Shown piece by piece: positions 2 to 25,405 of a stretch of 64,000 nucleotides of DNA. Both the position numbers and the translations under genes were made by a program. The notes under the pieces were generated by a model that was given only the letters and a program-made list of their open reading frames with translations, ran no database searches and was not told the DNA's origin. Every line of letters begins with the position of its first letter. The stretch's first letter is position 1. Location: NCBI GenBank assembly GCA_038040175.1, contig JBBPIT010000006.1, forward strand, positions 19,991-83,990. Direction: 5' to 3'. The DNA is from Pseudomonadota bacterium. GTDB taxonomy: Bacteria; Pseudomonadota; Gammaproteobacteria; Burkholderiales; JACQAP01.

Positions 2-1027
2 ATCTTTCTGGACTCTTCGCCGGATCGCTGGGGGCGGTTGCTCATGCAGCGGCGTGCAGCGCATCGCGCGGCAAAGGATGGAAAACCTCCTCCGACGCTC
101 ACCGCCTGGGACTATCTCCTCGGCGTCCACGACTCTACGCGAATCGGAGCGCTTCGCTTTCGGCGCAACGAGACCGAACCGTTCCTCGACGATGCGCAAG
201 ACCGGGCTGCCCCGCCCATTGCGCGGGTCCAGGAGCTACAGGCGGTCAGTCTAAAGCTCGAGGACGCGCACGCCGAGGAGCATCCGGACTACGGACAATG
301 GCTGGCCCAGCTCGTCGCCCCCGGCTCTTCGCTCGGCGGCACCCGCCCAAAGGCGGCAGTGCTGGATGAGAATGGGCGTCTTTGCATTGCGAAATTTCCA
401 AGCCGGCACGACACGCACGACGTCGGGGCTTGGGAGCATGTCGTACACAGACTCGCGGTGAGGGCCGGAATTGACGTTGCGCCGGCAAAGTTGCTTCGCT
501 TCGGCAACGAGGGCCACACGTTTCTCAGCCGACGCTTCGATCGAACTGAATCAGGCGGACGAAAGGCCTTTCTCTCCGCGATGACGCTTCTGCAGCGCAA
601 GGACGGTGAAGCGGGGGCAAGTTATCTCGAACTCGTCGAGCTCTTGCAGGCTCGAGGGGCGAGAACGCAAACCGACTGTGCGCAACTCTTTCGCCGCGTA
701 GTCCTCAATATCTGCGTGTCGAACACTGACGACCATCTGCGCAACCACGGTTTCTTTGTCGAGCCGCAAGGTCTGGTCCTAGCGCCCGCGTACGACATGA
801 ACCCTAACCCCGAGCGGAAGGACCACTCCATCGCCATTGACGAGGTAAACGCGAGCTGCGACGTCGACGTCGCGCTAAGAGCGGCTGCCGGCTATGGCGT
901 GAACCAGGCGCAGGCTTCCGACATCATCGCGGAAGTGAGGCGCGCGGTCGGCCAATGGCGCGATGAGGCTACGAGCGTTGGCATTCCGCGTGGAGAGCAG
1001 AACCGGATGCAGACCGCCTTCCGCTAG
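2..1027 (+). CDS. hipA: HipA-family Ser/Thr kinase toxin (type II TA), 5' end cut by window edge
   Basis: ORF 38..1027 stays open in frame back to nt 2 (IFLDSSPDRWGRLLMQRR, HipA N-domain-like). It has GGTRPKAAV, the catalytic-loop-like TDDHLRNHGF and AYDMNPNP motifs. Confidence 0.88.
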   Translation: MFLDSSPDRWGRLLMQRRAAHRAAKDGKPPPTLTAWDYLLGVHDSTRIGALRFRRNETEPFLDDAQDRAAPPIARVQELQAVSLKLEDAHAEEHPDYGQWLAQLVAPGSSLGGTRPKAAVLDENGRLCIAKFPSRHDTHDVGAWEHVVHRLAVRAGIDVAPAKLLRFGNEGHTFLSRRFDRTESGGRKAFLSAMTLLQRKDGEAGASYLELVELLQARGARTQTDCAQLFRRVVLNICVSNTDDHLRNHGFFVEPQGLVLAPAYDMNPNPERKDHSIAIDEVNASCDVDVALRAAAGYGVNQAQASDIIAEVRRAVGQWRDEATSVGIPRGEQNRMQTAFR

Positions 1028-1057
1028 CCGCCTGCTCACATGCTGCGGCGGTACTGT

Positions 1058-1090
1058 CCTCAGGAAACCTCAGGGTCAGACTCGATTTAT
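1058..1090. repeat. left arm of imperfect inverted repeat bracketing the TumE/TumA-like cassette
   Basis: Its reverse complement ATAAATCGAGTC..~10 nt..TTTCCTGAG recurs at 1839-1868, as a 12-nt and a 9-nt perfect block. Confidence 0.6.
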
Positions 1091-1098
1091 CTGCCCCA

Positions 1099-1473
1099 TT
1101 AAGCCACGAGCGCTTCAAGTTTGATCGCTTTAGCGCGGGCGCGCACTTCTTTCATCCGTCCGTGACCGGGATGGGTTTTTTCGGTAACGGTAACCAGGCC
1201 GGCTTTACCGAGCGCCGCAACGTCGCGCGTGACCGCGCTGCGGTCGCGCTTCATCTTCTGCGCGATCGATGCGATCGATCCGGGTTTTTGCTTGATGACC
1301 CTGAACAATGCCAGCCGCGCCGGGGTCAAGACGGAGAGCATATCCGCCGGATCTTCGAAACTGATTACTAAGCTTTCCGGAATGGGCTTGCTGGCATCGG
1401 CGAGCCGTGCCAGCTTGCGCGCCCGGCCAAGGAAGTCATCGAGTCTTTCAATCTTCACCGAAGCTTGCTTCAT
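1099..1473 (-). CDS. winged-HTH (MarR-like) DNA-binding protein, TumA/HVO_A0114-like putative antitoxin
   Basis: 124 aa. LTPARLALFRVIKQKPGSIASIAQKMKRDRSAVTRDVAALGKAGLV is a wHTH segment. Its ATG overlaps the stop of the upstream ORF (ATGA). Confidence 0.72.
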   Translation of the reverse strand: MKQASVKIERLDDFLGRARKLARLADASKPIPESLVISFEDPADMLSVLTPARLALFRVIKQKPGSIASIAQKMKRDRSAVTRDVAALGKAGLVTVTEKTHPGHGRMKEVRARAKAIKLEALVA

Positions 1474-1781
1474 AAGGAACCTCGTTTTAGCAGTTGATGC
1501 AACTCACCCTCGAACAGAGCTTCGATTTCCTCGAAGCTCTCAAACGCGATCTCGGTCACAGTCCCGAGGTAATGCCGGTGATGGCGGCCATGCTGGCTGT
1601 CGTAACCTAGCACTCGCCCGTTGTCCCCGACAAAGATCGAATGATTGATGTATGCCAGGTTGTACCGAACGACATTCCCCGCTTTGTCCACCCACGTTTC
1701 GACCCGGACCTTGCCATTTCCACGGCGGGCGGAGATTGCGTGAACCTCATCGACCACCTTTTTCAGTCGCGGAGCAGGCAT
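1470..1781 (-). CDS. TumE-like (DUF6516-type) putative toxin
   Basis: 103 aa. The His-rich core GYDSQHGRHHRHYLG is recalled as typical of TumE-family proteins. It is 4-nt overlapped with the downstream HTH gene. Confidence 0.68.
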   Translation of the reverse strand: MPAPRLKKVVDEVHAISARRGNGKVRVETWVDKAGNVVRYNLAYINHSIFVGDNGRVLGYDSQHGRHHRHYLGTVTEIAFESFEEIEALFEGELHQLLKRGSL

Positions 1782-1838
1782 GACGGATTATATCACCCCT
1801 GATCGTGGAGTGGGCGCGCAGCCTGTGCGATTAAAGCA

Positions 1839-1868
1839 ATAAATCGAGTCAGTGTAACTTTTCCTGAG
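1839..1868. repeat. right arm of inverted repeat bracketing the TumE/TumA-like cassette
   Basis: ATAAATCGAGTC (1839-1850) and TTTCCTGAG (1860-1868) are reverse complements of 1079-1090 and 1059-1067. Confidence 0.6.
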
Positions 1869-1979
1869 TTTAGATTCCCGCTTTGCGGGATGAAGCTGAG
1901 CATGCGTGCCGACCTCGCTTGGGCCGGCGTGCAACGTCGTCATACCGCTTGCTCAGCGCGAAGTGCGGATAGTGGGGAG

Positions 1980-2127
1980 CGGAGCCTTAGTTCGCCCAAT
2001 TTTGTCAGGCGCCGATTTGTGAATAGAATCGGTATAAAGCCGCATGGGGACTGGCTATGCGGGCGTTTATGCTGTGCGACTATGGCCTGTTCCCGATTGT
2101 TCTTCGAGCCTGGCCGCTTTGATTTCC
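1980..2127 (+). repeat. copy 1 of ~145-bp direct repeat flanking the RHH cassette
   Basis: Aligns with 2846-2988 at ~85 % identity by manual alignment, with two small indels. Reading frames are not conserved between copies. It contains the hairpin CCGCAT-N11-ATGCGG at 2040-2062. Confidence 0.8.
2002..2029 (+). promoter_or_regulatory. sigma70-like promoter candidate inside repeat copy 1
   Basis: TTGTCA (2002-2007), a 16-nt spacer, then TAGAAT (2024-2029), oriented toward the RHH gene. Confidence 0.35.
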
Positions 2128-2281
2128 GTGGTGGACGATCTCCGTCACCCCTTTTCCAGACATCGCCTGGAGAGCCGCATTTACGAGGGTCGGATATAAT
2201 TTTTATGACCAACAGTCATCGTATTGGAAAGCTCTTTTCGTTTCTGGCGCATTCTGGTGCAAGCTGGTGTATTCTGATTCC

Positions 2282-2539
2282 ATGTCGATCGCCGAAAAGC
2301 TGGTCCGTCAGAGCGTAAGCCTCCCGGCACGCGTCGCCCGTCAAGTGAAATCCCTGGCGAAGACCAGCAACACGAGCGCCAACCGCATCATTGTTGATCT
2401 CATCGAGTCCGGTCTCGAAGCCCGGGAGCAGGAAAGGAAACGCTTCTTCGAGCTGGCCGAGCGCCTGGCGCATTCCCGCGATGCGGAAGATCAGCAACGT
2501 CTCAAGGCAGAGCTGGCCCGCATGACCTTTGGCGAGTAA
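2282..2539 (+). CDS. ribbon-helix-helix (CopG/Arc-like) putative antitoxin
   Basis: SVSLPARVARQVKSLAKTSNTSANRIIVDLIESGL fits the RHH beta-strand/helix pattern. An alternative GTG start lies at 2267. The stop TAA overlaps the next ATG (TAATG). Confidence 0.7.
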   Translation: MSIAEKLVRQSVSLPARVARQVKSLAKTSNTSANRIIVDLIESGLEAREQERKRFFELAERLAHSRDAEDQQRLKAELARMTFGE

Positions 2540-2781
2540 TGCCCAGGATCCAGTGGACCGGACTGCCTCCCGCGCTCCGCGACCATCTGTTTGACCGGCT
2601 GCGCGAACGCAAGATCACCGCGGAAGACCTTTACCAGCTCAAAACGTGGCGAGAATCCGATCCCGATGCCCCCGACGGGCTCTGGTACAAGGACTTCGGC
2701 TCGTTCAAAATCTGTGGTGAAGGAAAATACCCGAAGACCTTCTTGCTCGCGGGCCAACCTGCCAAAGGTCAGCCGCTCTGA
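2539..2781 (+). CDS. hypothetical 80-aa protein, translationally coupled to the RHH gene (candidate toxin/effector)
   Basis: ORF with start overlapping the upstream stop. The sequence (KTWRESDPDAPDGLWYKDFGSFKICGEGKYPKTF) matches no family I recognise. Confidence 0.55.
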   Translation: MPRIQWTGLPPALRDHLFDRLRERKITAEDLYQLKTWRESDPDAPDGLWYKDFGSFKICGEGKYPKTFLLAGQPAKGQPL

Positions 2782-2845
2782 GGGCTCACTTCGCGTCATC
2801 CGGTAGAAAGCGCAGCGACATATTCGCCGGTTGGCGGTGCGGGGT

Positions 2846-2988
2846 CGGAGCCTGAGTTCGCCCAATCTTTTCAGGCGCTAATTTTGTGAATTGAATCGCC
2901 GGAAAGCCGCATGGGGATTGGCTTTGCGGGCGATTATGCTGTGCAACTATAATCAGTTCCCGATTGTCCTTCGAGCCCCTTTGATTTT
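2846..2988 (+). repeat. copy 2 of ~145-bp direct repeat flanking the RHH cassette
   Basis: Aligns with 1980-2127. It keeps the hairpin (2907-2929) and a weaker TTTTCA-17-TTGAAT motif (2868-2896) pointing into the 3' end of the convergent 3012-4277 gene. Confidence 0.8.
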
Positions 2989-3011
2989 TCTCTTATGGGT
3001 TAGCCGGCTCT

Positions 3012-4277
3012 CTATTTTGTCACCAGACCCTCGATCCACCTGTCGAGCTCGTGCGGAGACGACTTCCAAAGGCTGCGACGCCGTAGCAGCCTAAGCAGGA
3101 CTGTCTTCGTCAGCCACCGGAGCCGTCCCAAGTCTTCGTCAGTCACTTCATACGAACCACTGTGCACGATCTTCGACCGAACGCTGTAAAGGTCCGCAAC
3201 CGACTTCGTTACCTCTGCGCGCCGCTCGCGGCTTCGGCCCAGTAGTCGGGCGACCCGCAAACTCAGTCGATATGTAATTTCCTGGTTGCGCACAGGGAGT
3301 GCGGCGGCCTCAAGAGCGATAGCGAACAACAAGAAGCTTTGCTCGCGCTTTGGCTCCACGCTTGCCCGGCCAGCCCATCGGAACGAGGTGAGCAGCACCT
3401 CACCGGCGGTCTTCGGTGTGGCTATTCTCGAGAGAGCACTCAAGGCCAGCAGCTGTCGAAGAACACGCGGGTCCTTTCGAAGGTTTTCAAGAGAGAACGG
3501 CGCGATGGGTCCAACCTTTGCGTGAGACAACAACACTTGTCCCTCAGATGACACGATGGCCGCTATTTCACGCGCTCTGGCACCCTCAGCGGGCAGGTAT
3601 AGCCACCCGTGGTTGTAGGGAATCAAGTCTTCAAAGAAATTGACGCTATCAACGGCGGCCCTCGTGGCGACCCGCGCCCGGACCATTGCCGAGTCGAAGT
3701 CACGGGCCTTGACCTCAACGACGGCGCACGGATTACCCCAGAGCTCGCTTTCCTTCATGTCGCTCACATCGCTCCGGAATGCGTTGAACTCGGCGCCCGT
3801 TCCAATGGGCTTCAGGAGCTGCCGTAGGTGTGACTGTCCGAATCTCACAAAGCGTATACCGCCGAAACTGAAAGGGAGATACTTTGGAGCGAACCCGTGG
3901 ACAGGCACAAAACACCGGTACGACAGCGGTGGTGAGCACAGCCGCTTGTGCAGATCGACGAGAGCCTGATTCACTCGCTCGTCAAAGGGCTTCTCCCTCT
4001 TGCGCCGAATGTCTAACGAATGAAATAGCGAGTCCTGAAGGTATTGTTCGACGGATCGCCTCGACAGGTCTCCTGTCGTCGAGAAATCATCGACAAGCCG
4101 CCCAACAGTGGCCGTATAGGCAACGAGATCGGCTTCATCGAGGAAGAGCGAACCCTCGTCGTGTCGCGAAATCCTGAAACCGCTGTGGCCATCTGGGATT
4201 CCCGCTGAGAGGTTCTTGTGAATGCTTCTGATGAAGTCACCAACGTACGCTAGCGTCTTTAGTGATTTCGCTTTCAT
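3012..4277 (-). CDS. HEPN-domain protein (ApeA-like C-terminal Rx4H motif) with unassigned N-terminal ~290 aa
   Basis: 421 aa. The C-terminus has FLLFAIALEAAALP ... ADLYSVRSKIVHSG, giving R367-x4-H372 at nt 3162-3179. It lies 46 nt downstream of the methyltransferase gene on the same strand. Confidence 0.6.
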   Translation of the reverse strand: MKAKSLKTLAYVGDFIRSIHKNLSAGIPDGHSGFRISRHDEGSLFLDEADLVAYTATVGRLVDDFSTTGDLSRRSVEQYLQDSLFHSLDIRRKREKPFDERVNQALVDLHKRLCSPPLSYRCFVPVHGFAPKYLPFSFGGIRFVRFGQSHLRQLLKPIGTGAEFNAFRSDVSDMKESELWGNPCAVVEVKARDFDSAMVRARVATRAAVDSVNFFEDLIPYNHGWLYLPAEGARAREIAAIVSSEGQVLLSHAKVGPIAPFSLENLRKDPRVLRQLLALSALSRIATPKTAGEVLLTSFRWAGRASVEPKREQSFLLFAIALEAAALPVRNQEITYRLSLRVARLLGRSRERRAEVTKSVADLYSVRSKIVHSGSYEVTDEDLGRLRWLTKTVLLRLLRRRSLWKSSPHELDRWIEGLVTK

Positions 4278-4323
4278 CCGAGGTCTGGGTCACGTAATGA
4301 AACAAAAATGCACTCTGCTTCAG

Positions 4324-7300
4324 TTACACTATGACCGCAAACCCGTCCTTTCTTCTGCGCACGCGGCCCACAGCTACCAGCGTGTCGATGATCTGCGGCA
4401 GGCGCTTTTTCCACGGACCGCGACCGGTGAAGTGCGCCGCGATGGCGTCGTCGGCCAGCGGTGCGCGTGCCGCAGTCAGTACTTCGGCTACCGCTTTGAC
4501 CTGCGCGGGCAGCGTGGCCGGCCACGGGCGGCGCTCGCCGGGTTTGGCGGCAACGGCAGCTTCTTCACCGGTGTCGATCTCAAGCTGCTCGGCCGCCCGC
4601 GTTTGCGGCTGGCCCGACGCCGGAATCTGGAACTCGGGCCTCAGCCAACGGATCAGGCCGCGTTGTTCCTCTGCCGCGCGCTCCGCGTTGAGCGCGACGA
4701 GCCGTTCGAGCAGCGCATCATCCAAGGCGCGTTTCGCGTCATCACGCGACACGGACTTTGCTCCCTCCTTCGCCGATGCGGGGGAGGGCCGGGGTGGGGG
4801 CGCGTTGCCATTCACCACTTCCAGCAGCGCCGCGAGATCGCTCCATCCATAGGCGTCGAGTACCGCGCGGTCGAGTTCGTCGTGTAGCGTCTTGAGCACC
4901 GCGACCAGCCCGTGTTCGTGGATGACTTTCTCTTTCGCATTGAGCGCTTCGCCACTCTTCAGTTTTTCGAGCACGTTGTACATGCCGGTCAACGTGAGAT
5001 CGGCGTGCTGCGCCTGCTGGCGCTTCCGGTGGGCATCGAGTTGTTCGGCGAGGTCGCGGATGCGGGTCTTAAGCTCGGCATTGGTGTCAGGGAATGGAAA
5101 AGTTTCAAAGCACTTTGTTTTGACATAAACCGGGTCGTTTCCAACTCCGAGCCAACTACCAGCGGCAAGCGCCCACATGACGTGTGGGGTGCTCGAAAGC
5201 ACGCCCAGCTCGTACGCATCACTTAGCGCAATAGCAACGAGCTTGTTGTCCGGCAGGATCGACGTTTCGAGAAACTGAAAGGTTCGATGTTTCGCGGTCT
5301 CGGCTGTAGCAATGTAACGGGACAGCCCAACAAGCTGTTTGCGCAGCTTGGGATTGGTCTCGCCGAACAGCCACCAATTTCTTCGACGCACCTCCCGGTT
5401 GTTTTGATCGCGCTCCGGCTTGACCCGCTCGAGCACTCGCTGAAAGACCGCCGGAAAGCGTTCGCGCACCTGCTCTGCATTCAGCCCAAATAAATCTATC
5501 ACCATCACGCCGCGTGGCCTATCGGTCAAGTCACGGCCGTTGCGATAAGGACGAACGTGCCGCTCAATCCCAGCCACGCTACCTAGGCCAAGCGCTGCGG
5601 CTTCTTCTTGCGTAACGATGAAGCCTGCACCGAAGAGTTGCACTCCGCGATTGCTGAGGTCGCGATTGCCTTCAAGCTGCGCCGCGCCTACAACGTTTGC
5701 GCCGGTAGTCAGATCGGCGTGTATCACGCCCTGCTTGGCCACCAGCGTAACGTCGATCGCGCCATCACCAACAGGTGTTTCCGCCGCAGAGGTGAGCAGC
5801 GCACCCGCGCCGGTTTGCAGCGTGCCGACCGTCATCGCGATCCTAACCGCCGCGCCGTCGCTACTATCGACCCACGGATGATCGGGAATCGCGAAAGCGA
5901 GTGACAGCGGAGGTTTTCCTCCCAGGTGCCGTTCCAATACGCGCCGGTTGAACGTTTGCCGCAGGCTATTCGTTGTGATCAGACCGAAGCGACGCAGTGT
6001 GCCAGCGCGAATACGATCAGCGGCATGGTTCCACCAATACATGACGAAGTCCGCGGACTCCGGGACCTCGGGCCAAGTTTTGCGCAGCGATTCGGTGTAA
6101 CCATCTCCCAGCGCAGCACGCATAGAAGCCGCACCGATAAACGGCGGGTTCCCGATTACGAAATCCGCCGTCGGCCACTCCGACTTACGCGGATTGACGT
6201 ACTTCTCCACCGGCACGCGCGCTGCATCATCGGGCACGTCCTCTCCCGTGACAGGGTGCTTCTTCGTCGTTTTTCCGTCCCAGCGCGTGATTGGAATGCC
6301 CCGCTCATTAGTCACGTATTCCATGCGGTCGTAAGCGAGAACGGCGTCGCGGCATTCGATGTTGTGAAAATCTTTCAGCACCGGCTGCGGCGGCATGATA
6401 TGGCCACGCGTACGGAAGTGCCACTGCAGGTAGCCGATCCACAGCACCATCTCGGCAATTTCGGCCGCGCGCGGGTTGAGTTCGATGCCGAGCAACTGAT
6501 GCGGATCGACCGATACACCCTGCAGATCAAGTCGGCCTCGCGTGTCGCCGAGTTCGTCGAGCTGGTTCAGTACCTCGCCTTCGAGCCGCTTCATGTGTTC
6601 GAGCGTCACGTACAGAAAGTTGCCCGAGCCGCACGCCGGGTCGAGCACACGTACCTCGCACAGGTGCTTGAGAAAGTCCCGCACCTGTTGCTGGGCCTCG
6701 TTCAGCTTGCCCTCGCCGGCCAGCACGAGTGCAGCGGCTTGGGCAATCTTCCAGTCCTCGCGCAGCGGTTCGACGATGGTCGGCAGGACCAGCCGCTCGA
6801 CATACGCGCGCGGAGTGTAGTGCGCACCGAGCGCATGGCGCTCGGTGGGATCAAGCGCGCGTTCGAGCAGCGTGCCGAAAATGGCGGGCTCGACCTCGCG
6901 CCAGTTGGCACGCGCTGCCACCAGCAGCAGGTCGATCTGATCACGGCTTAGCGGCAGCACCTGCGGGTTCTTGAACAGCTTGCCGTTGAACTTCAAAATA
7001 TCGGCACGAACGGCAGCGGAGAATTCACCGCGATCCATCGCGCGCCAGACTTCGCCCACCAGCGGTATGAACTGCTCGGGCTTGTCCTTCAGGCTTTCGA
7101 GCAGATCGACGAACGCGCGTTTGGGCAGCAGGCCGACGTCCTCGGCGAACATCGAAAACAGACAGCGGCTCAGAAAGCCCGCGACGACCTCGGGTGCGTG
7201 CCCGGCCGCTTCGAGCACGCGGGCCACTTCGGCCAGCCGCTCGGCCACGTCGCGCGTGACCTTGGCGGATAGTCGCGTCGGGTCCAGCGACAGCGGATCA

Positions 7301-7848
7301 AGCCACACCGCGCGCAGCCGCTGGCGGGTGGCGTCATCGCGCAGGTCGGCAAGCTGGATGCGATGCGAGCGCGGGTCGGGAAACGGAGTGTAGGTTGCGC
7401 CGGAGCGCGTGAACTCGGCGTACAGCTCGATCACGTTGCCGACATCCACCACCAGCAGGAACGGCGGGCGGCCTTCCGCGGCCGACAGCGCGCGGGCATA
7501 TTGCTCGGCCTGGCCACGGGCGCGCAGCAGCGCATCGTCGAAACCCTTGCCCCCGGCCTGTTTGACCTTCTTTGCTTCGAGCACGAACGTCGCGCGGCGG
7601 TAGCAGTCGATGAAACCGGGCGACTCGGTGCCGTCACCGTGGCGGAAAGTAATGCGGCGCTCGAACACATAAGCGTTGTCTCGCGTGTCCTCGCGGGCCG
7701 GGTCCGGCGTGGGCAGTTCGAGCAGCGTGCACAACTCATGGACGAAAAGCTGATAGTTCGCACGCTCCGAGCCGCTGGCGGATTGCCAGCGGGTGATGAA
7801 CTTTTCTACGGCATTGTCGGAACGGATAGGAAAACTCATCCGCCCCAC
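4324..7848 (-). CDS. single-chain type IIL/IIG (MmeI-like, YeeA-like) restriction-modification enzyme / N6-adenine DNA methyltransferase
   Basis: 1174 aa. It has an N-terminal D81-x9-E91-x-K93 ([16 protein letters not shown]), SAM motif [14 protein letters not shown] and motif [11 protein letters not shown]. The track start at 7848 is GTG, and ATG at 7839 is equally plausible. Confidence 0.82.
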
Positions 7849-8026
7849 TGCGCGCTCTTGACCGTCCTGGCGCGCAAATCGCGCTTGCGCCGGAGCCGTT
7901 GGCGAGCGATCTGGCTTCTCATGAGCTGTCCTCTTGGCGTTCGGGTCGCGAGCAATCTAGATTATGACGAATGCTGCCCCCGCCGCCCGATCATGCCAGC
8001 AAAGCCGCCTTTCCGCAGCCGCCTGC

Positions 8027-11000
8027 TTACATGTTCCTACGGTACTGCCCGCCGACTTCGAACAATGCGTCCGTGATCTGGCCGAGCGAGCAGTAGCGCA
8101 CGGCGTTCACCAGTTCGGCGAACACGTTGCCGTTGTCGATCACGGTCTGCGTCAGTTTCTCCAGCGCAGCCGGCGTCTCGGTGGCGTTGCACTTCTGGAA
8201 CTCGCGCAGCCGGCGTATCTGGCTCCGCTTCTCTTCCTCGGTCGAACGCTGCAGCGGGATGCTGCCGCCCACCTCGACCGCGTCCGGATTGCGGAAGGTG
8301 TTCACGCCGATGATCGGGTAGGAGCCGTCGTGCTTCTTGTGCTCGTAGTACAGCGACTCTTCCTGGATCTTGCCGCGCTGGTAGCCGGTTTCCATCGCGC
8401 CGAGCACGCCGCCGCGCTCGGAGATGCGTTCGAACTCCTGCAGCACCGCTTCTTCCACAAGATCGGTCAGTTCGTCGATGATGAATGAGCCCTGGTTCGG
8501 GTTCTCGTTTTTCGCAAGGCCCCACTCGCGGTTGATGACGAGCTGGATCGCGAGTGCGCGCCTCACCGATTCGGCGGTCGGCGTGGTGATGGCCTCGTCG
8601 TAGGCGTTGGTGTGCAGCGAGTTGCAGTTGTCGTAGATCGCGATCAGCGCCTGCAGCGTGGTGCGGATGTCGTTGAACGCGATCTCCTGCGCGTGCAGCG
8701 AACGGCCCGAAGTCTGGACGTGGTACTTCAGCTTCTGGCTGCGCTCGCTGGCGCCGTACTTGTTCCTCATCGTGGTCGCCCAGATGCGCCGCGCCACGCG
8801 TCCGAGCACCGTGTATTCCGGGTCCATGCCGTTGGAGAAGAAGAACGACAGGTTCGGCGCGAAGTCGTCGATGTCCATGCCACGCGCGAGATAGGCTTCG
8901 ACGAAGGTGAAGCCGTTGGACAGCGTGAAGGCAAGCTGCGAGATCGGGTTGGCGCCGGCTTCGGCGATGTGATAGCCGGAGATCGACACCGAATAGAAAT
9001 TGCGCACCTTGTTGCGTACGAAGAACTCCTGGATGTCGCCCATCACCTTGAGCGAGAATTCGGTGGAGAAAATGCAGGTGTTCTGGCCCTGGTCTTCCTT
9101 GAGGATGTCGGCCTGCACCGTGCCGCGCACGTTCTCCAGCGCCCAGGCGCGGATCTTTGCGGTTTCCTGGTCGTTGGGCTGCCGGCCGTGCTGCGCGGCG
9201 AACTTCTCGATCTGCTGGTCGATCGCGGTGTTGACGAACATCGCCAGGATGGTCGGGGCCGGTCCGTTGATGGTCATCGACACCGAGGTCGCCGGATCGC
9301 ACAGGTCGAAGCCGGAGTACAGCACCTTCATGTCGTCCAGCGTCGCGATCGATACCCCGGAGTTGCCGACCTTGCCGTAGATGTCCGGACGTTCGTGCGG
9401 GTCGAAGCCGTACAGCGTCACCGAATCGAACGCGGTCGAGAGGCGCTTCGCCGGCATGTCCCGGCTGAGAAACTTAAAGCGTGCGTTGGTGCGGAACGGA
9501 TCGCCCTCGCCGGCGAACATCCGGGTCGGGTCCTCGTTCTCGCGCTTGAACGGGAACACCCCTGCCGTGTACGGGAAATAGCCGGGCAGGTTCTCCCGCA
9601 TCAGCCACTTCAGCGTCTCGCCGTCGTCCTCGAACTTCGGCAGCGCCACCTTCGGCACCTTGGTGCCGGACAGCGACGTGGTCGTCAGCACCGTGCGGAT
9701 CTCGCGATCGCGGATTTTCGTGACCTGTACGTCACCCGAATAGGACTGCTTCACCTGCGGCCACTCGTCCAGCAGTCTTTTTGCCTCCGGACTCAACGTC
9801 TTCTCTCTTTCGGAGATGAGCACATCCAGTGCTGCCGTTACTCCCTCTCCGCCGCTTGCGGGGGAGAGGGCCGGGGAGAGGTGGAGCATGCGCTTCGCTT
9901 CGCGCAAGTGCTGCCGCTCGCGCGCGATCCTGGCCTGCTTCGCCACGTCGGCGTGATAGCCGCGCACGGTTTCGGCAATTTCCGCCAGATAGCGCACGCG
10001 CGCCGGCGGAACGATGACGTTCTGGCCGGACGAAGCCTTTACCGTGGTTGGCTTGAACCTGCCGTCGCCGGCCTTGAGCCCGCGGGTTTTGAGTTCGGCG
10101 ACGATGGCCTGGTAGAGCGCGGTCACGCCGTCGTCGTTGAACCGCGAGGCCATGGTGCCGAACACCGGCATCGCCTCGGCGGCCGCGCCGAAGGCGCCGC
10201 GATTGCGCTGCATCTGCTTGCGCACGTCGCGCAGCGCATCCTGCGCCCCGCGTCGGTCGAACTTGTTGATCGCGACGAAATCGGCAAAGTCGAGCATGTC
10301 GATCTTCTCGAGCTGGCTGGCGGCGCCGAACTCGGGCGTCATCACGTACAGCGAGAAGTCCGCATGGGCGACGATGGCTGCGTCGCCCTGGCCGATGCCG
10401 GAAGTCTCCACCAGTATCAGGTCGAAGCCGGCGCACTTGCAGGCGGCGATCACGTCCGGCAGGCAGGCGGCGATCTCGCTGCCGGCATCGCGGGTGGCGA
10501 GCGAGCGCATGTAGATGTTCGGATGATTGATGGCGTTCATGCGGATGCGGTCGCCGAGCAGCGCGCCGCCGGACTTGCGCCGCGACGGATCCACCGCGAT
10601 CACGGCGATCTTGAGCGCGTCGTCCTGGTCGATGCGGAAGCGGCGGATCAGTTCGTCGGTAAGCGACGACTTGCCCGAGCCGCCGGTTCCGGTGATGCCG
10701 AGCACCGGCACGCTGTCGTGCTCAGCCGCCCGCTTCGCCAGCTTCTGGCGCAGCGGCTCCGGCAGCGTCGCGTTCTCGAGCCCGGTGATGACGCGCGCCA
10801 AGTCGCGCACATTGCCGCGGAAGACTTCGTCGAGGCTCGCCGGCATCTCCGCGGAAAGATTGCGGTCCGCGGTGCGGATCATGTCCGTGATCATTCCCTG
10901 CAGGCCCATGCGCGCGCCGTCTCCCGGGGAATAAATGCGCGCCACACCGTAGCTGCGCAGCTCCTCGATCTCGCTCGGAACGATCACGCCGCCGCCGCCG

Positions 11001-11314
11001 CCGAAAACCTTGATGCTCGCGCCGCCGCGCTCGCGCAACAGGTCGATGGTGTACTTGAAATATTCGACGTGGCCGCCCTGATACGAGGACACCGCGATGC
11101 CCTGCACGTCTTCCTGGATAGCCGCGGTGACGATCTCGTCCACCGACCGGTTGTGGCCGAGGTGTATGACTTCGACGCCGCTCGCCTGCAGGATGCGGCG
11201 CACGATGTTGATCGAAGCGTCGTGGCCATCGAACAGGCTGGCGGCGGTGACGAAGCGGACCTTGTTCTTCGCCTGCTTGCCTTGATCGGCGGCTTGTACG
11301 CTGAGATCGGTCAT
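8027..11314 (-). CDS. icmF: fused isobutyryl-CoA mutase (B12-binding domain + MeaB-like GTPase + mutase domain)
   Basis: 1095 aa. The N-terminal B12 domain reads [14 protein letters not shown], the central P-loop reads GTGGSGKSS, and the C-terminus is methylmalonyl-CoA-mutase-like. Confidence 0.92.
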
Positions 11315-22030: not shown

Positions 22031-25000
22031 CTACCTCAGTTCCACGAGCATGGCCTTCGCCTCCTTGAGGTCCTTGGTGTCAAACCCTTCCGTAAACCAA
22101 AGATAGATGGGCTCGAGCAACTCGAGCGCCTCTTTGCGCCGGTTCTGGCTCTTCAGCAGCCTGGCATAGCTGGTGGCAGCGCGCAGTTCCCAGGATTTCG
22201 CCTGTTGCTGGCACGAGACCTCCAGCGAAGCGACGAACTCGGCTTCGGCTCGTGCCTCATCACCGCCAAGCTGGAGTATCCATCCCTTCACCCTTAGCGC
22301 TTCGGCATAGATGCATTTTTCCTCCCAGCCGGGCCGTTCGATCTGCTCCAGCGCTTCCTCGATCAAGGTCAATGCAACATCGCGCCGGCCCGAAAGTGCG
22401 GCGCTCTGCGCGTGCAGAGTCTTGTAGTACGGGATGTCGACCGCGAGTCCAACTTCCGCCCAACGAGGAATGGATTCGCGGAACAGTGCTTCCGATTCCT
22501 GCGGGCGATCCGAGATCAGCAACCATGCGGCCCGGCAGATCGGGCCGACAATTTGCTCGAAGAAATCGATCTTCTGCTCATGCACCAGCCGCTCGAACTC
22601 GTCCAGCTTCGCTGCGCAAAGTCCCGGCTCATGCCGGTAAACGTCCAGATGCTTGGCGGCGAACTGGAGCGTCCACGCCAGATCGAAAAGGTGTCCGCGT
22701 GCCCGGGTATGTCGAATGCCTTCCTCCAACGTTTGCGCTGATCTCTCCGGATAACCCAGCGCCCACTGCGCGAATGCGTGGTAAACGAGCGCCCAGGACT
22801 TGGGATCGACCGTCAACATATCCGCAAGATGGCGGTGACGGACCGGGTCATAGCGCGTAAGGATGGCCTCGGCGTGCCGGCTGATCGACGCAAACTCTCC
22901 AAGGAAATAGGAAGTCGTTTCCACTTGGGTGTGACCCATCAGACGCATGTCATCAAGATCGCTCCTTTCCCCTTCATCGAGAAGTCGCTCGGCCCAGGAC
23001 ATGGACTCACGAATTTGACCTATGCACATGCGATGTATGGACAGGCCGTAAAGAATGGGCAGCATATGATCGGAGCGGTTCAAAGCCCGCTCGAGGCTCC
23101 ATGCCCGTTCCAGGTTGCTTGCCACGTTCGGGTGAGCCCAGCCCTTGTAGGCCAGCCACGCCATGCCGAGCGTCGTACACAGCTCCAACTCGTGTGCGTC
23201 CCGGCCGGGGGACTCCGGCACCTGCTGAAGCAAACTCATGCCGCGATCCAGATGAGCGATCGCGTCGCGAACAGCCACGCGCTGCAGCGCGAGCTGCCCG
23301 GCCTTGCGCCAGTAAGGAATGGCCTGGTCCGCCAAGCCGGCCGCGCTGTAGTGATGCGCCACCCGCTCGGGCTGCGTCGCGGCAACAGCCGGGAACTGCT
23401 TCTCCAGCACCGTCGCAATCTGCACGTGGATCTGGGTACGCCTCGCCTTCAGCAGCGAGTCGTAGGCAGCGTCCTGCACCAGCGCATGCTTGAAGACATA
23501 GACAGCCTCCGGGATGGCACCGCGCCGGAACGCCAGTCCCGATTCAGTCAGGCGCGCCAGGCCATCGTCGAGCTCGGTCCGGGGCAATGACGCGACGGCC
23601 GAGAACAGCTCGTAGCTGAACTCACGTCCGATGGCGGCGCCGATCTGTGCGATCTCCTTCACGGGCATGAAGCGATCCAGGCGCGCCATCAGCGAGTCCC
23701 TGAGCGTGGCAGGGATTGCAATGGTGTCGGCCGCGCTAGCGTAGTCGTAGCGATCCCCGAAGTCCTTCAAATTGCCGGACTCGAGGATGGACTTGGTCAA
23801 CTCTTCGACAAACAGCGGCACGCCGTCGGTCTTGGCGACAATCTGTTCCAGCAGGTCTGCCGGCAGCGCCTTGCCGCCCGCGATCTTGGAGACCATCGCG
23901 CCGCTTTGCGCCCGCGTGAGCTTGGCCAGATTCAGCGCGGTGACATGTCCGTGTTCCGACCACCGCGACTGAAACTCGGGCCGGTGGGTAAGCACGATTA
24001 GCAACGGGACATTTCTGACCCGATCGATCAGCAGGTCGAGCACTTCCAGGGTGGTGGGATCGGCCCAGTGCAAATCCTCGTACAGCATCACGCTGGGTTG
24101 TTTGTGCACGGCCGCTTCGGTGAGATCGACCAAGGTACGCAGCGTCTCATCCTTGTGCTTCTGCGGGGTCATAGGCAGCGCGCCGTAGCGCTCTTCACAG
24201 GGGATGGAAAGCATGGAGGCGATGAAGCGCACATCGCTCAGCGGCCGCCCGTAGTGGGTGACGATCAGCGCTTCGAGCTTGTCGAGCTTGGACTCGGGCT
24301 GCTCGTCACGGCCAAACTTCAGCGCCCGCTCGAAGTTGTCGATGCTGGGCCAGAAGGCGCTGTTGACGTAATAGGGCGAGCACTGGAACCGCAGCGCTTG
24401 CGCGCCCTGGCCCTCCAGGCGTTCCCGCAGCGCGCTCAGGACACGGCTCTTGCCAATGCCGGGCTCCCCCGAAAGCAGGACCACCTGGCCTTCGCCTTCC
24501 TGCGTAAGCTGCCAGCGCTCGAGCAGAAGCCCGATCTCCTGCTCGCGCCCCACCAGCGGGGTGAGGATGCCGCCGGTGGCCGCATCGAAGCGGCTTGCCG
24601 CGCCGCTCACCCCGAGGATTCGATAGGCATGCGTAGGTCGCGCCATGCCCTTCAGCGTCTGTTCACCCAGGTCCTTGTAATCGAAAGCACCGCCCGCCAA
24701 TCTTTGCACGCGCTCGCTCACCACGATGCTGCCCGGGGCTGCGATGGCCTGCAGCCGCGCAGCCAGGTTCATGGTCTCGCCCACCGCGCCCTTCTCTCCG
24801 GCCGCCACCACTACCAGCCCCGTGGCCACGCCGATACGCACCTGCAGATGCCCGGCATCCGGGACATTGAGCCGGGTCAGCGATTCGATGATTTCGAGCC
24901 CTGCACGAATGGCGCGTTCACCCTCACCTTCGTGCGCCAAAGGATAGCCGAAGAAGGCGACGATGCCGTCGCCGAGGCGCTGGAATACGTAACCCTCGTA

Positions 25001-25405
25001 GCGCGTTACACAGACCGCGCAGGCGTCTTCGTAGCTACGGATGATGCGTTGAAGCACTTCGGGATCGACGCGGGATGCGAGCTCCGTGAAGCCCACCATG
25101 TCGCAGAACAGCACGGTCAACTGGCGCCGCTCGCCCCCGGTGGCAGTGACTGCAGCGGGGCTAGGTGCAAGCTGATTTGCCTCGGCGCCGTTTAATTCGG
25201 CGATCGCCTTGAGGAGTTTCTTGCGATGTCCAAACGATACGCCAAGATCCTGCAGGTCCTTGTCACCAAGTATGCGCAGGACATCGAGGTCCACGTCGTT
25301 GTCGGCGAAGACCCGAGAGTATTGCTCGAGGCTGAGTAATTTGAGCCAACTCGAGACGGACTGCACCTTCCCCTCCCTATGGGCTTTATTTATCTTGGCC
25401 CGCAC
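22031..25405 (-). CDS. SAM-domain / class III adenylate-guanylate cyclase / STAND-type P-loop ATPase / TPR multidomain protein
   Basis: The N-terminal sterile-alpha-motif-like segment reads SWLKLLSLEQYSRVFADNDVDLDVLRILGDKDLQDLGVSFGHRKKLLKAI. The cyclase core reads TVLFCDMVGFTEL...GDGIVAFFG...ETMNLAARLQ, the Walker A reads LLSGEPGIGKSRV, and a long helical-repeat C-terminus follows. Confidence 0.85.
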   Translation of the reverse strand: MRAKINKAHREGKVQSVSSWLKLLSLEQYSRVFADNDVDLDVLRILGDKDLQDLGVSFGHRKKLLKAIAELNGAEANQLAPSPAAVTATGGERRQLTVLFCDMVGFTELASRVDPEVLQRIIRSYEDACAVCVTRYEGYVFQRLGDGIVAFFGYPLAHEGEGERAIRAGLEIIESLTRLNVPDAGHLQVRIGVATGLVVVAAGEKGAVGETMNLAARLQAIAAPGSIVVSERVQRLAGGAFDYKDLGEQTLKGMARPTHAYRILGVSGAASRFDAATGGILTPLVGREQEIGLLLERWQLTQEGEGQVVLLSGEPGIGKSRVLSALRERLEGQGAQALRFQCSPYYVNSAFWPSIDNFERALKFGRDEQPESKLDKLEALIVTHYGRPLSDVRFIASMLSIPCEERYGALPMTPQKHKDETLRTLVDLTEAAVHKQPSVMLYEDLHWADPTTLEVLDLLIDRVRNVPLLIVLTHRPEFQSRWSEHGHVTALNLAKLTRAQSGAMVSKIAGGKALPADLLEQIVAKTDGVPLFVEELTKSILESGNLKDFGDRYDYASAADTIAIPATLRDSLMARLDRFMPVKEIAQIGAAIGREFSYELFSAVASLPRTELDDGLARLTESGLAFRRGAIPEAVYVFKHALVQDAAYDSLLKARRTQIHVQIATVLEKQFPAVAATQPERVAHHYSAAGLADQAIPYWRKAGQLALQRVAVRDAIAHLDRGMSLLQQVPESPGRDAHELELCTTLGMAWLAYKGWAHPNVASNLERAWSLERALNRSDHMLPILYGLSIHRMCIGQIRESMSWAERLLDEGERSDLDDMRLMGHTQVETTSYFLGEFASISRHAEAILTRYDPVRHRHLADMLTVDPKSWALVYHAFAQWALGYPERSAQTLEEGIRHTRARGHLFDLAWTLQFAAKHLDVYRHEPGLCAAKLDEFERLVHEQKIDFFEQIVGPICRAAWLLISDRPQESEALFRESIPRWAEVGLAVDIPYYKTLHAQSAALSGRRDVALTLIEEALEQIERPGWEEKCIYAEALRVKGWILQLGGDEARAEAEFVASLEVSCQQQAKSWELRAATSYARLLKSQNRRKEALELLEPIYLWFTEGFDTKDLKEAKAMLVELR

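Follow-up and report, generated by a model that had tools for sequence, protein, structure and literature searches.

ApeA (Gao et al. 2020; Pfam HEPN_Apea/ApeA_NTD1; cryo-EM structures 9hxi, 9hxj, and 9hxn) is a single-gene protein of ~580 amino acids (aa) built of an N-terminal domain, a Mid domain, and a split HEPN domain with insertions, and it is activated by 5′-phosphorylated deoxydinucleotides from DNA degradation (bioRxiv 10.64898/2026.01.26.701840). PrrC has an ABC-ATPase N-domain and is encoded inside the hsdMSR operon of a type Ic restriction–modification (R-M) system, with which it co-occurs and interacts. Passages of Anantharaman et al. (2013; PMC3710099) link R-M systems with HEPN, RhuM, and Fic/DOC toxins, associate at least 16 HEPN clades with R-M operons, and place ApeA inside R-M operons of epsilonproteobacteria. 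Here we examine a stretch of 64,000 nucleotides (nt), hereafter the window, from a Pseudomonadota bacterium (Gammaproteobacteria; Burkholderiales; JACQAP01; assembly GCA_038040175.1, contig JBBPIT010000006.1, positions 19,991 to 83,990), which holds a small defence islet adjoining icmF. In this islet, an open reading frame (ORF) for a 1174-aa enzyme of the MmeI type is followed on the same strand by an ORF for a 421-aa protein of the HEPN type.

A sequence-only reading of the locus had proposed that the two genes may form an R-M-coupled abortive-infection module. The comparisons reported below establish the identities of the genes, the conservation of their motifs, their independent assortment, and the variability of the slot in which the HEPN-type gene lies. 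The explanation that we favor, with moderate confidence, takes the 421-aa protein to be an autonomous abortive-infection nuclease of the HEPN type, carried in a variable cargo slot of the defence islet and independent of the MmeI-type enzyme.

The 421-aa protein and its large neighbor

The AlphaFold2 (AF2) model of the 421-aa protein has two parts (predicted local distance difference test, pLDDT, 88; predicted template-modeling score, pTM, 0.83). The N-terminal part is presumed to be the sensor or regulatory region; the C-terminal domain, modeled at pLDDT 94, consists of six helices, with an Rx4H motif ending the longest. The string FLLFAIALEAAALP occupies residues 315 to 328, and LYSVRSKIVHSG, which contains R367 and H372 (nt 3162–3179), residues 363 to 374; the protein has two Rx4H strings in total. 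G303, Y364, R367, and H372 never vary in an alignment of 129 family members whose identity to the query is 23 to 52%; W301, A305, E312, E323, S368, and G374 are nearly invariant. The family signature is Y-x2-R-x4-H, and its R367 and H372 are also invariant in a smaller 30-member alignment. Conserved positions of the N-terminal region in the 129-sequence alignment are G128, P135, G139, A191, A197, A201, and N213.

The 421-aa protein belongs to a large, taxonomically scattered, and uncatalogued family. A word-index search yielded 75 clusters, and an exhaustive profile search yielded 15,486 representatives at E ≤ 1e-3, 3893 at E ≤ 1e-10, and 680 at E ≤ 1e-30. The best 150 representatives listed are nearly all full-length matches, mostly of 390 to 465 aa, and family members typically have ~410 to 460 aa. 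Their hosts include Terriglobia, Latescibacterota, Anaerolineae, Gemmatimonadales, cyanobacteria, Myxococcales, Planctomycetota, and Pseudomonadota. Neither the 421-aa protein, nor either of its halves, nor 30 members matched any Pfam, NCBIfam, or PADLOC model at permissive thresholds (E ≤ 1–10); a DzbB match in three members at E = 0.016 was treated as noise. The N-terminal ~290 aa that the sequence-only reading could not place correspond to a region of ~285 aa that no curated model matches. The check suggested there, a Pfam search of 3012–4277 for a HEPN_Apea-like or ApeA_NTD1-like match, returned none; these Pfam models and the PADLOC ApeA models matched neither the 421-aa protein nor its members. 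The JGI label "Apea-like HEPN" is attached to two family members and is not reproduced by current models.

When the 129-sequence family profile was searched against the Protein Data Bank (PDB), the top biologically meaningful match was Ec3ApeA (9hxj; E = 3.2e-4). This match consists of two collinear stretches with three shared motifs. The first begins with a strand-helix element ahead of the HEPN domain (V-x-V-x-A-x-D-x2-A...LN) and extends to include the "IALESL" helix; the second, Y-x2-R-x2-IVHSG, belongs to the catalytic helix, and ApeA shares Y-x2-R-x2-I-x-H-S-G of it. Profile positions 183 to 338 align with residues 689 to 824 of the Ec3ApeA chain; within this stretch, the distal half of the N-terminal region aligns weakly with the part of ApeA before the HEPN domain, which we estimate from the tag offset to be the Mid domain. 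Smaller profiles matched Ec1ApeA and Ec2ApeA at the same helices, more weakly. Designed trefoil-knot proteins and a cytochrome c555 trimer, which also appeared in the profile searches of the PDB, were set aside as repeat or low-complexity artefacts. A 136-aa Ec3ApeA fragment rebuilt from the HMMER alignment had no match in the protein index or in the plasmid and phage collections.

Structural comparison was less telling. The full-length AF2 model had no significant Foldseek match in the PDB or BFVD. With the C-terminal domain alone, the best PDB match had E 0.28, and HEPN-MNT 8xeh_B, 2q00_B, and 1wty_C were retrieved at E 1.3 to 1.8 (TM 0.33–0.42); we take 2q00_B and 1wty_C to be minimal HEPN proteins. 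Judged by its motifs, the C-terminal domain of the 421-aa protein is most likely a HEPN RNase. The HEPN assignment of the sequence-only reading thus gains from the invariance of Rx4H and from ApeA as the only meaningful solved relative. The profile match further suggests distant homology to the solved ApeA proteins, short of family membership. The 421-aa protein shares with ApeA the single-gene plan, in which a noncatalytic N-terminal part precedes a C-terminal HEPN domain, and it has no conserved partner gene in ~34 loci; ApeA, too, is reported inside R-M operons in the passages of PMC3710099 cited above. In contrast to ApeA, with its ~580 aa, it has a shorter N-terminal region and a minimal HEPN domain (~135 aa, six helices) free of the large ApeA insertions. 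As it is much more compact than ApeA, we call it a compact ApeA-like HEPN protein rather than a member of the ApeA family. ApeA defence proteins are further marked by cleavage of tRNA anticodon loops, a pocket activated by a ligand, a doughnut-shaped oligomer, and protection against phage. DARNA (PD-T7-3) was also considered as its family and was rejected, the HEPN domain of DARNA being N-terminal.

The 1174-aa protein reads clearly as an ordinary MmeI-family type IIG (IIL) single-chain R-M enzyme. The Pfam domains MmeI_N (1e-23), MmeI_hel, MmeI_Mtase, and MmeI_TRD follow one another in this order, the PADLOC model REase_MTase_IIG PDLC03627 matches residues 13 to 1168 with 1554 bits, and MmeI (5hr4) is the sole PDB sequence match; all three bear out the MmeI-like identity proposed earlier. 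D81, E91, and K93, in segment 79–94, form a PD-(D/E)xK motif with the MmeI spacing D-x9-E-x-K, S-adenosylmethionine motif I lies at residues 401 to 413, and IGNPPF at 565 to 570. In 69 full-length relatives from metagenomes, D-x9-E-x-K is kept in 66 and NPP[FYW] in 67. Conserved as they are across diverged relatives, the motifs quoted for both proteins are more than chance. The enzyme shares with MmeI the domain order, the spacing of the nuclease triad, the gamma-class methyltransferase motifs, and a target recognition domain (TRD). It is ~250 aa longer than MmeI (919 aa) through a C-terminal extension typical of its subfamily. Enzymes of the MmeI family are characterized by cutting at a fixed distance from an asymmetric site and by methylating adenine on a single strand. 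The long extension noted by the sequence-only reading is therefore present and is not an unusual feature, since PDLC03627 spans nearly the whole chain. By its domains, the chain should be a self-contained R-M system, with a PD-ExK nuclease at the N terminus, an N6-adenine methyltransferase of the gamma class, and a TRD of its own. We also considered BREX or DISARM as the source of the large methyltransferase and rejected them: PglX and DrmMI models match partially, whereas the type IIG model matches over the full length, and no BREX or DISARM partner gene stands beside the gene, the neighbors counted being IcmF and a 1205-aa ORF that reads by eye like a ferredoxin oxidoreductase.

Assortment of the two genes and the cargo slot

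Adjacency of the two genes was scored from both sides, with ~34 non-redundant loci of the 421-aa family on the HEPN side; neighbor clustering covered 31 non-redundant loci with four genes per side. Loci are cited below by our own handles (L002 and so on). An MmeI-like gene was found in none of the ~34 other loci, and homologues at 70, 67, 66, 51, 50, 44, 43, and 43% identity have no MmeI-like neighbor. A tblastn search with the MmeI protein gave no match inside 10 kb at any of 25 genome loci of the family. Clustering revealed no neighbor gene shared across the 31 loci; the Pfam families of the ±2 neighbors are heterogeneous and often housekeeping, the most frequent type being helix-turn-helix (HTH) genes (3/92). 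On the enzyme side, no member of the 421-aa family adjoins the MmeI relatives in 80 metagenome loci (51–91% identity), two of which have a distantly related HEPN-bearing gene (2.6 kb away in L040; 4 kb away and on the opposite strand in L070). The MmeI/HEPN adjacency was seen only in contigs identical to the window.

The gene itself shows the same independence. Between the window and the locus of the 67%-identical homologue (L026), DNA homology is confined to 3064–4251, inside the ORF, and the guanine–cytosine (GC) content of the HEPN gene, 0.573, differs from the 0.627 of the MmeI gene. The 421-aa gene moves as a one-gene cassette, and the two genes assort independently. The sequence-only reading had named an absence of conserved adjacency among homologues as an outcome that would speak against it, and the score among homologues is 0 of ~34; from neither side do the genes co-occur beyond identical contigs. 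Because adjacency is not conserved, a dedicated R-M-coupled two-gene system is not supported, and the pairing is a local juxtaposition confined to this lineage.

Relatives of the MmeI gene show what takes the place of the HEPN gene. The MmeI gene and the downstream backbone (~1072–2987), which contains a ~136-nt element, two small genes that overlap each other, and a pair that includes a winged-helix gene, are kept in L039, L043, L044, L052, and L060, and the segment between them differs. Conserved flanks around a differing middle indicate that the HEPN gene occupies a bounded slot (~2988–4323), with the 3′ end of the MmeI gene at one border and the conserved ~136-nt element at the other. This element also terminates the differing cargo in L039, L043, L044, and L060. 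In the closest relatives, the slot holds a protein of 529 aa whose HEPN domain is LA2681-like (HEPN_LA2681; L041:4668–6257, minus strand; L046:7806–9395, minus), a 585-aa Swt1-like HEPN protein (L060:9574–11331, minus), ORF6N (L042:4254–4796, plus; L044:10319–10864, plus), or small proteins of unknown kind; the LA2681-like and Swt1-like genes are convergent with the MmeI gene. In distant relatives, the first downstream gene may encode RhuM (L069:9571–10596, plus), Fic/DOC (L050:9710–10909, plus), a CAP12/Pycsar-type TIR protein (L103:4262–5119, plus), or a second type IIG methyltransferase (L087); others have housekeeping genes downstream, such as recA and citrate synthase. As the slot holds other cargo in close relatives, the adjacency reflects defence-island cassette exchange and no obligatory partnership.

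A looser association of R-M genes and effectors at the slot is real. Three of the cargo types found behind this MmeI subfamily, HEPN (three families), RhuM, and Fic/DOC, are those that PMC3710099 links with R-M, and ORF6N and TIR join them here. The examples in the passages concerned are type I and helicase-containing R-M operons, whereas here a single-chain type IIG gene adjoins an exchange slot with defined borders. In a literature search over full texts, the one paper with MmeI and HEPN together was unrelated. The sequence-only reading was aware of no described MmeI-family/HEPN two-gene system; the general HEPN/R-M linkage has been known since 2013.

These data bear on the proposal that the HEPN protein is coupled to the enzyme, either silenced by it, as with EcoprrI and PrrC, or fired when it is inhibited; in a variant, restriction products such as DNA-degradation dinucleotides would fire it. 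Besides the position of the gene (same strand, a 46-nt gap, and no terminator-like site), several associations are consistent with coupling: other-family HEPN genes come first after the enzyme in three close contigs (L041, L046, and L060), known R-M-linked toxin types (RhuM and Fic/DOC) stand behind distant relatives, HEPN-bearing genes lie within 2.6 to 4 kb in L040 and L070, and homologues of the 421-aa protein occur near type I R-M genes (L033–L036) or adjoin DUF1156 proteins (L002 and L004). The HEPN/R-M links in the cited passages of PMC3710099 and the activation of ApeA by products of DNA degradation point the same way. However, the genes co-occur in neither direction beyond identical copies of the locus, the HEPN gene is a one-gene cassette of different GC content, the other HEPN genes that occupy the slot run convergently to the MmeI gene and are not operonic, and other relatives have RecA, citrate synthase, and other housekeeping genes downstream. 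The 421-aa protein also lacks an ABC-ATPase or other PrrC-like regulatory module. It resembles PrrC in that a gene for a HEPN-type nuclease adjoins R-M genes, the arrangement from which the second-line suicide concept comes (in the passages of PMC3710099 cited). Unlike PrrC, it has neither a match to an ATPase or P-loop family nor such a domain in its AF2 model, its neighbor is type IIG, and the two genes were found paired at this locus only. We consider coupling unlikely.

Some family loci have surroundings of their own that deserve mention. In L033–L036 (e.g., L033:2032–11031), a 44%-identical homologue has a divergent type I R-M operon (hsdR-M-S) as its neighbor, an unknown 386-aa gene 18 nt upstream on the same strand, and an RNase H-domain gene after it; from its Replic_Relax, PIN, and Gp49/HTH genes, this locus looks like part of a mobile element. 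In two Latescibacterota metagenome-assembled genomes (L002:3616–7875 and L004:12201–15191), the family gene adjoins a ~1000-aa DUF1156 protein, presumably the methylase-like component of DUF499/DUF1156 systems, and in L002 an AAA_21 (AbiEii-like) ATPase comes next after the DUF1156 context.

A different proposal would take the 421-aa protein out of defence altogether, as a protein that processes RNA or binds nucleotides in a housekeeping or regulatory role and adjoins an R-M gene by chance, or as a catalytically different helical domain with a coincidental Rx4H. Many homologues do lie between metabolic genes, for instance between the genes for the small and large subunits of carbamoyl-phosphate synthase (L027) or near cupin/RibD genes (L121), no curated HEPN model matches, and the fold search was indecisive. 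Against this, the patchy distribution across phyla, the varied insertion sites, and the single-gene cassette are hallmarks of mobile defence or toxin genes, some homologues lie among AbiTii, DUF3644, R-M, transposase, and resolvase genes, and the invariant Y-x2-R-x4-H fits the ApeA catalytic helix. A nondefence role appears very unlikely to us.

Several points weigh against an autonomous abortive-infection nuclease. No curated HEPN, ApeA, or defence model matches any of the 30 members even at E ≤ 1. In Foldseek, minimal HEPN structures were reached by the modeled domain only at E > 1, inseparable from generic helical bundles, and ApeA structures were not retrieved. The predicted link to ApeA consists of one profile match (E = 3e-4) and motif collinearity. 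The gene lies on the same strand, 46 nt behind the MmeI gene and with no terminator between, which fits co-transcription, and some functional interplay is possible. Finally, many family loci lie among housekeeping genes and not in obvious defence islands.

Layout of the islet

The two ORFs and the gap between them, as well as the motif positions in both proteins, are exactly where the sequence-only reading had put them (Table 1). It had seen no terminator-like hairpin between the genes, and our consensus scan of the spacer likewise found neither a terminator-like nor a sigma-70-like site; co-transcription of the two genes is possible. Public contigs identical to the window have the large gene called from an ATG at 7839, three codons in, and the protein is probably 1171 aa long. 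The icmF–MmeI synteny also occurs in L055.

Table 1. Coordinates of the islet's features in the window
Feature	Position	Strand	Remarks
IcmF (fused isobutyryl-CoA mutase), housekeeping flank, upstream edge of the islet	8027–11314	minus	1808 bits to PDB 4xc6
MmeI-family enzyme ORF	4324–7848	minus	1174 aa, GTG start at 7848
Spacer between the MmeI-type and HEPN-type genes	4278–4323	minus	46 nt, sequence read directly
HEPN-type ORF	3012–4277	minus	421 aa, ATG start
N-terminal alpha/beta region, residues 1–~285	3423–4277	minus	mixed alpha/beta fold in AF2, confident
C-terminal all-helical domain, residues ~286–421	3012–3422	minus	WAGRA, FLLFAIALE, LYxxRSxIVHSG; R367/H372
~136-nt repeat, copy 2, downstream border of the variable slot	2841–2977		85% identical to copy 1
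Two overlapping small ORFs, downstream backbone	2216–2865	minus	124 aa (2491–2865) and 93 aa (2216–2497), 7-nt overlap
~136-nt repeat, copy 1	1975–2110		85% identical to copy 2
103-aa ORF overlapping 124-aa winged-helix protein, islet backbone	1099–1781	minus	1470–1781 and 1099–1473, 4-nt overlap

The two copies of the ~136-nt repeat are in direct orientation, 867 nt apart, and contain a hairpin-like GC-rich segment; a sigma-70-like promoter site was scored on the plus strand within the region of copy 1 (2002–2029). The repeat had no Rfam match and could be a shared regulatory region, a small RNA (sRNA), or a recombination site. Rfam returned no structured RNA in 900–8100, and no tRNA was found in the whole window. 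The 124-aa and 93-aa ORFs have no Pfam match and are 76 to 94% identical in protein sequence in L044 and L060 despite the different cargo there, the 124-aa ORF being partial in L060; they may be a toxin–antitoxin (TA)-like or regulatory pair. The winged-helix protein matches Pfam HVO_A0114 (8e-16), and its pair with the 103-aa ORF is kept in L039 and L052. The 67%-identical HEPN homologue is followed, ~630 nt downstream, by a similar DUF433 and HVO_A0114 pair (L026:11890–12446), which has no DNA homology to 1099–1781 of the window.

With small genes and a repeat so close, the 421-aa protein might be the toxin of a TA or immunity pair whose small partner, such as a neighboring small ORF or an RNA from the repeat, was overlooked. 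TA systems frequently have HEPN toxins (HepT/MNT; AbiF with an RNA antitoxin), conserved pairs of small genes and the repeat do lie just downstream, and HTH genes are the top neighbor type of the family. Two homologues of ~50% identity also have Imm5-like genes 1 to 2 kb away (L122:8715–9296 and L123:2646–3161), too few for a partner. On the other side, the 31 non-redundant loci have no small neighbor in common, the small genes downstream and the repeat persist when the cargo is different and are absent beside the 67%-identical homologue, and 421 aa with a large N-terminal domain resembles self-regulated sensor-effectors (ApeA, DARNA, and RloC). A hidden partner therefore seems highly improbable.

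Two further genes of the window drew our attention. At its edge, a 329-aa ORF with a TTG start (38–1027, plus strand) has a HipA_C kinase domain (Pfam 4e-46), and HipA_2/DUF3037 pairs occur downstream of some MmeI relatives too. A 1124-aa ORF (22031–25405, minus strand) reads by eye as a SAM domain, a class III nucleotidyl cyclase, an AAA/STAND-like ATPase, and TPR repeats.

Proposed mechanism and significance

Returning to the autonomous nuclease that we favor, we infer the RNase activity of the 421-aa protein, its target, its trigger, and its defence role from likeness to better-known HEPN proteins. If it behaves like ApeA, DARNA, PrrC, and RloC, it would dimerize via its HEPN domains, which would together make up a composite Rx4H RNase site. 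The noncatalytic N-terminal region would keep it inactive until an infection cue arrives, whereupon it would cut cellular RNA, most likely at tRNA anticodon loops, and so abort the infection. The MmeI-type enzyme would meanwhile restrict unmodified DNA, with the HEPN protein acting alongside and independently; functional synergy between the two is possible.

A bolder variant, which we regard as distinctly unlikely, would make the 3′ end of this MmeI subfamily a dedicated, exchangeable slot for second-layer effectors and the 421-aa protein a new and widespread stand-alone sensor-RNase whose trigger is linked to restriction. The cargo would then be interchangeable (HEPN of at least three unrelated families, RhuM, Fic/DOC, TIR, and ORF6N), and DNA-breakdown products left by type IIG cleavage would trigger the HEPN protein, as deoxydinucleotides activate ApeA. 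If this were true, restriction and abortive infection would act in sequence with no protein–protein coupling.

The pairing is local to this lineage and HEPN/R-M linkage has been known from 2013, so the claim of a new MmeI/HEPN two-gene system should not be propagated. New here are the uncatalogued compact ApeA-like family and the cassette-exchange form that the R-M/toxin association takes behind a type IIG enzyme. Conserved flanks around interchangeable toxin-like cargo offer a ready means of effector discovery, and the slot variants are natural, isogenic-like comparisons for synergy between R-M and abortive infection. Because Pfam, NCBIfam, and PADLOC all miss the 421-aa family, current censuses of defence systems would not count it. 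Should the 421-aa protein prove to be an active nuclease, its 680 representative clusters at E ≤ 1e-30, spread over many phyla, would make up a large family of compact ApeA-like HEPN effectors.

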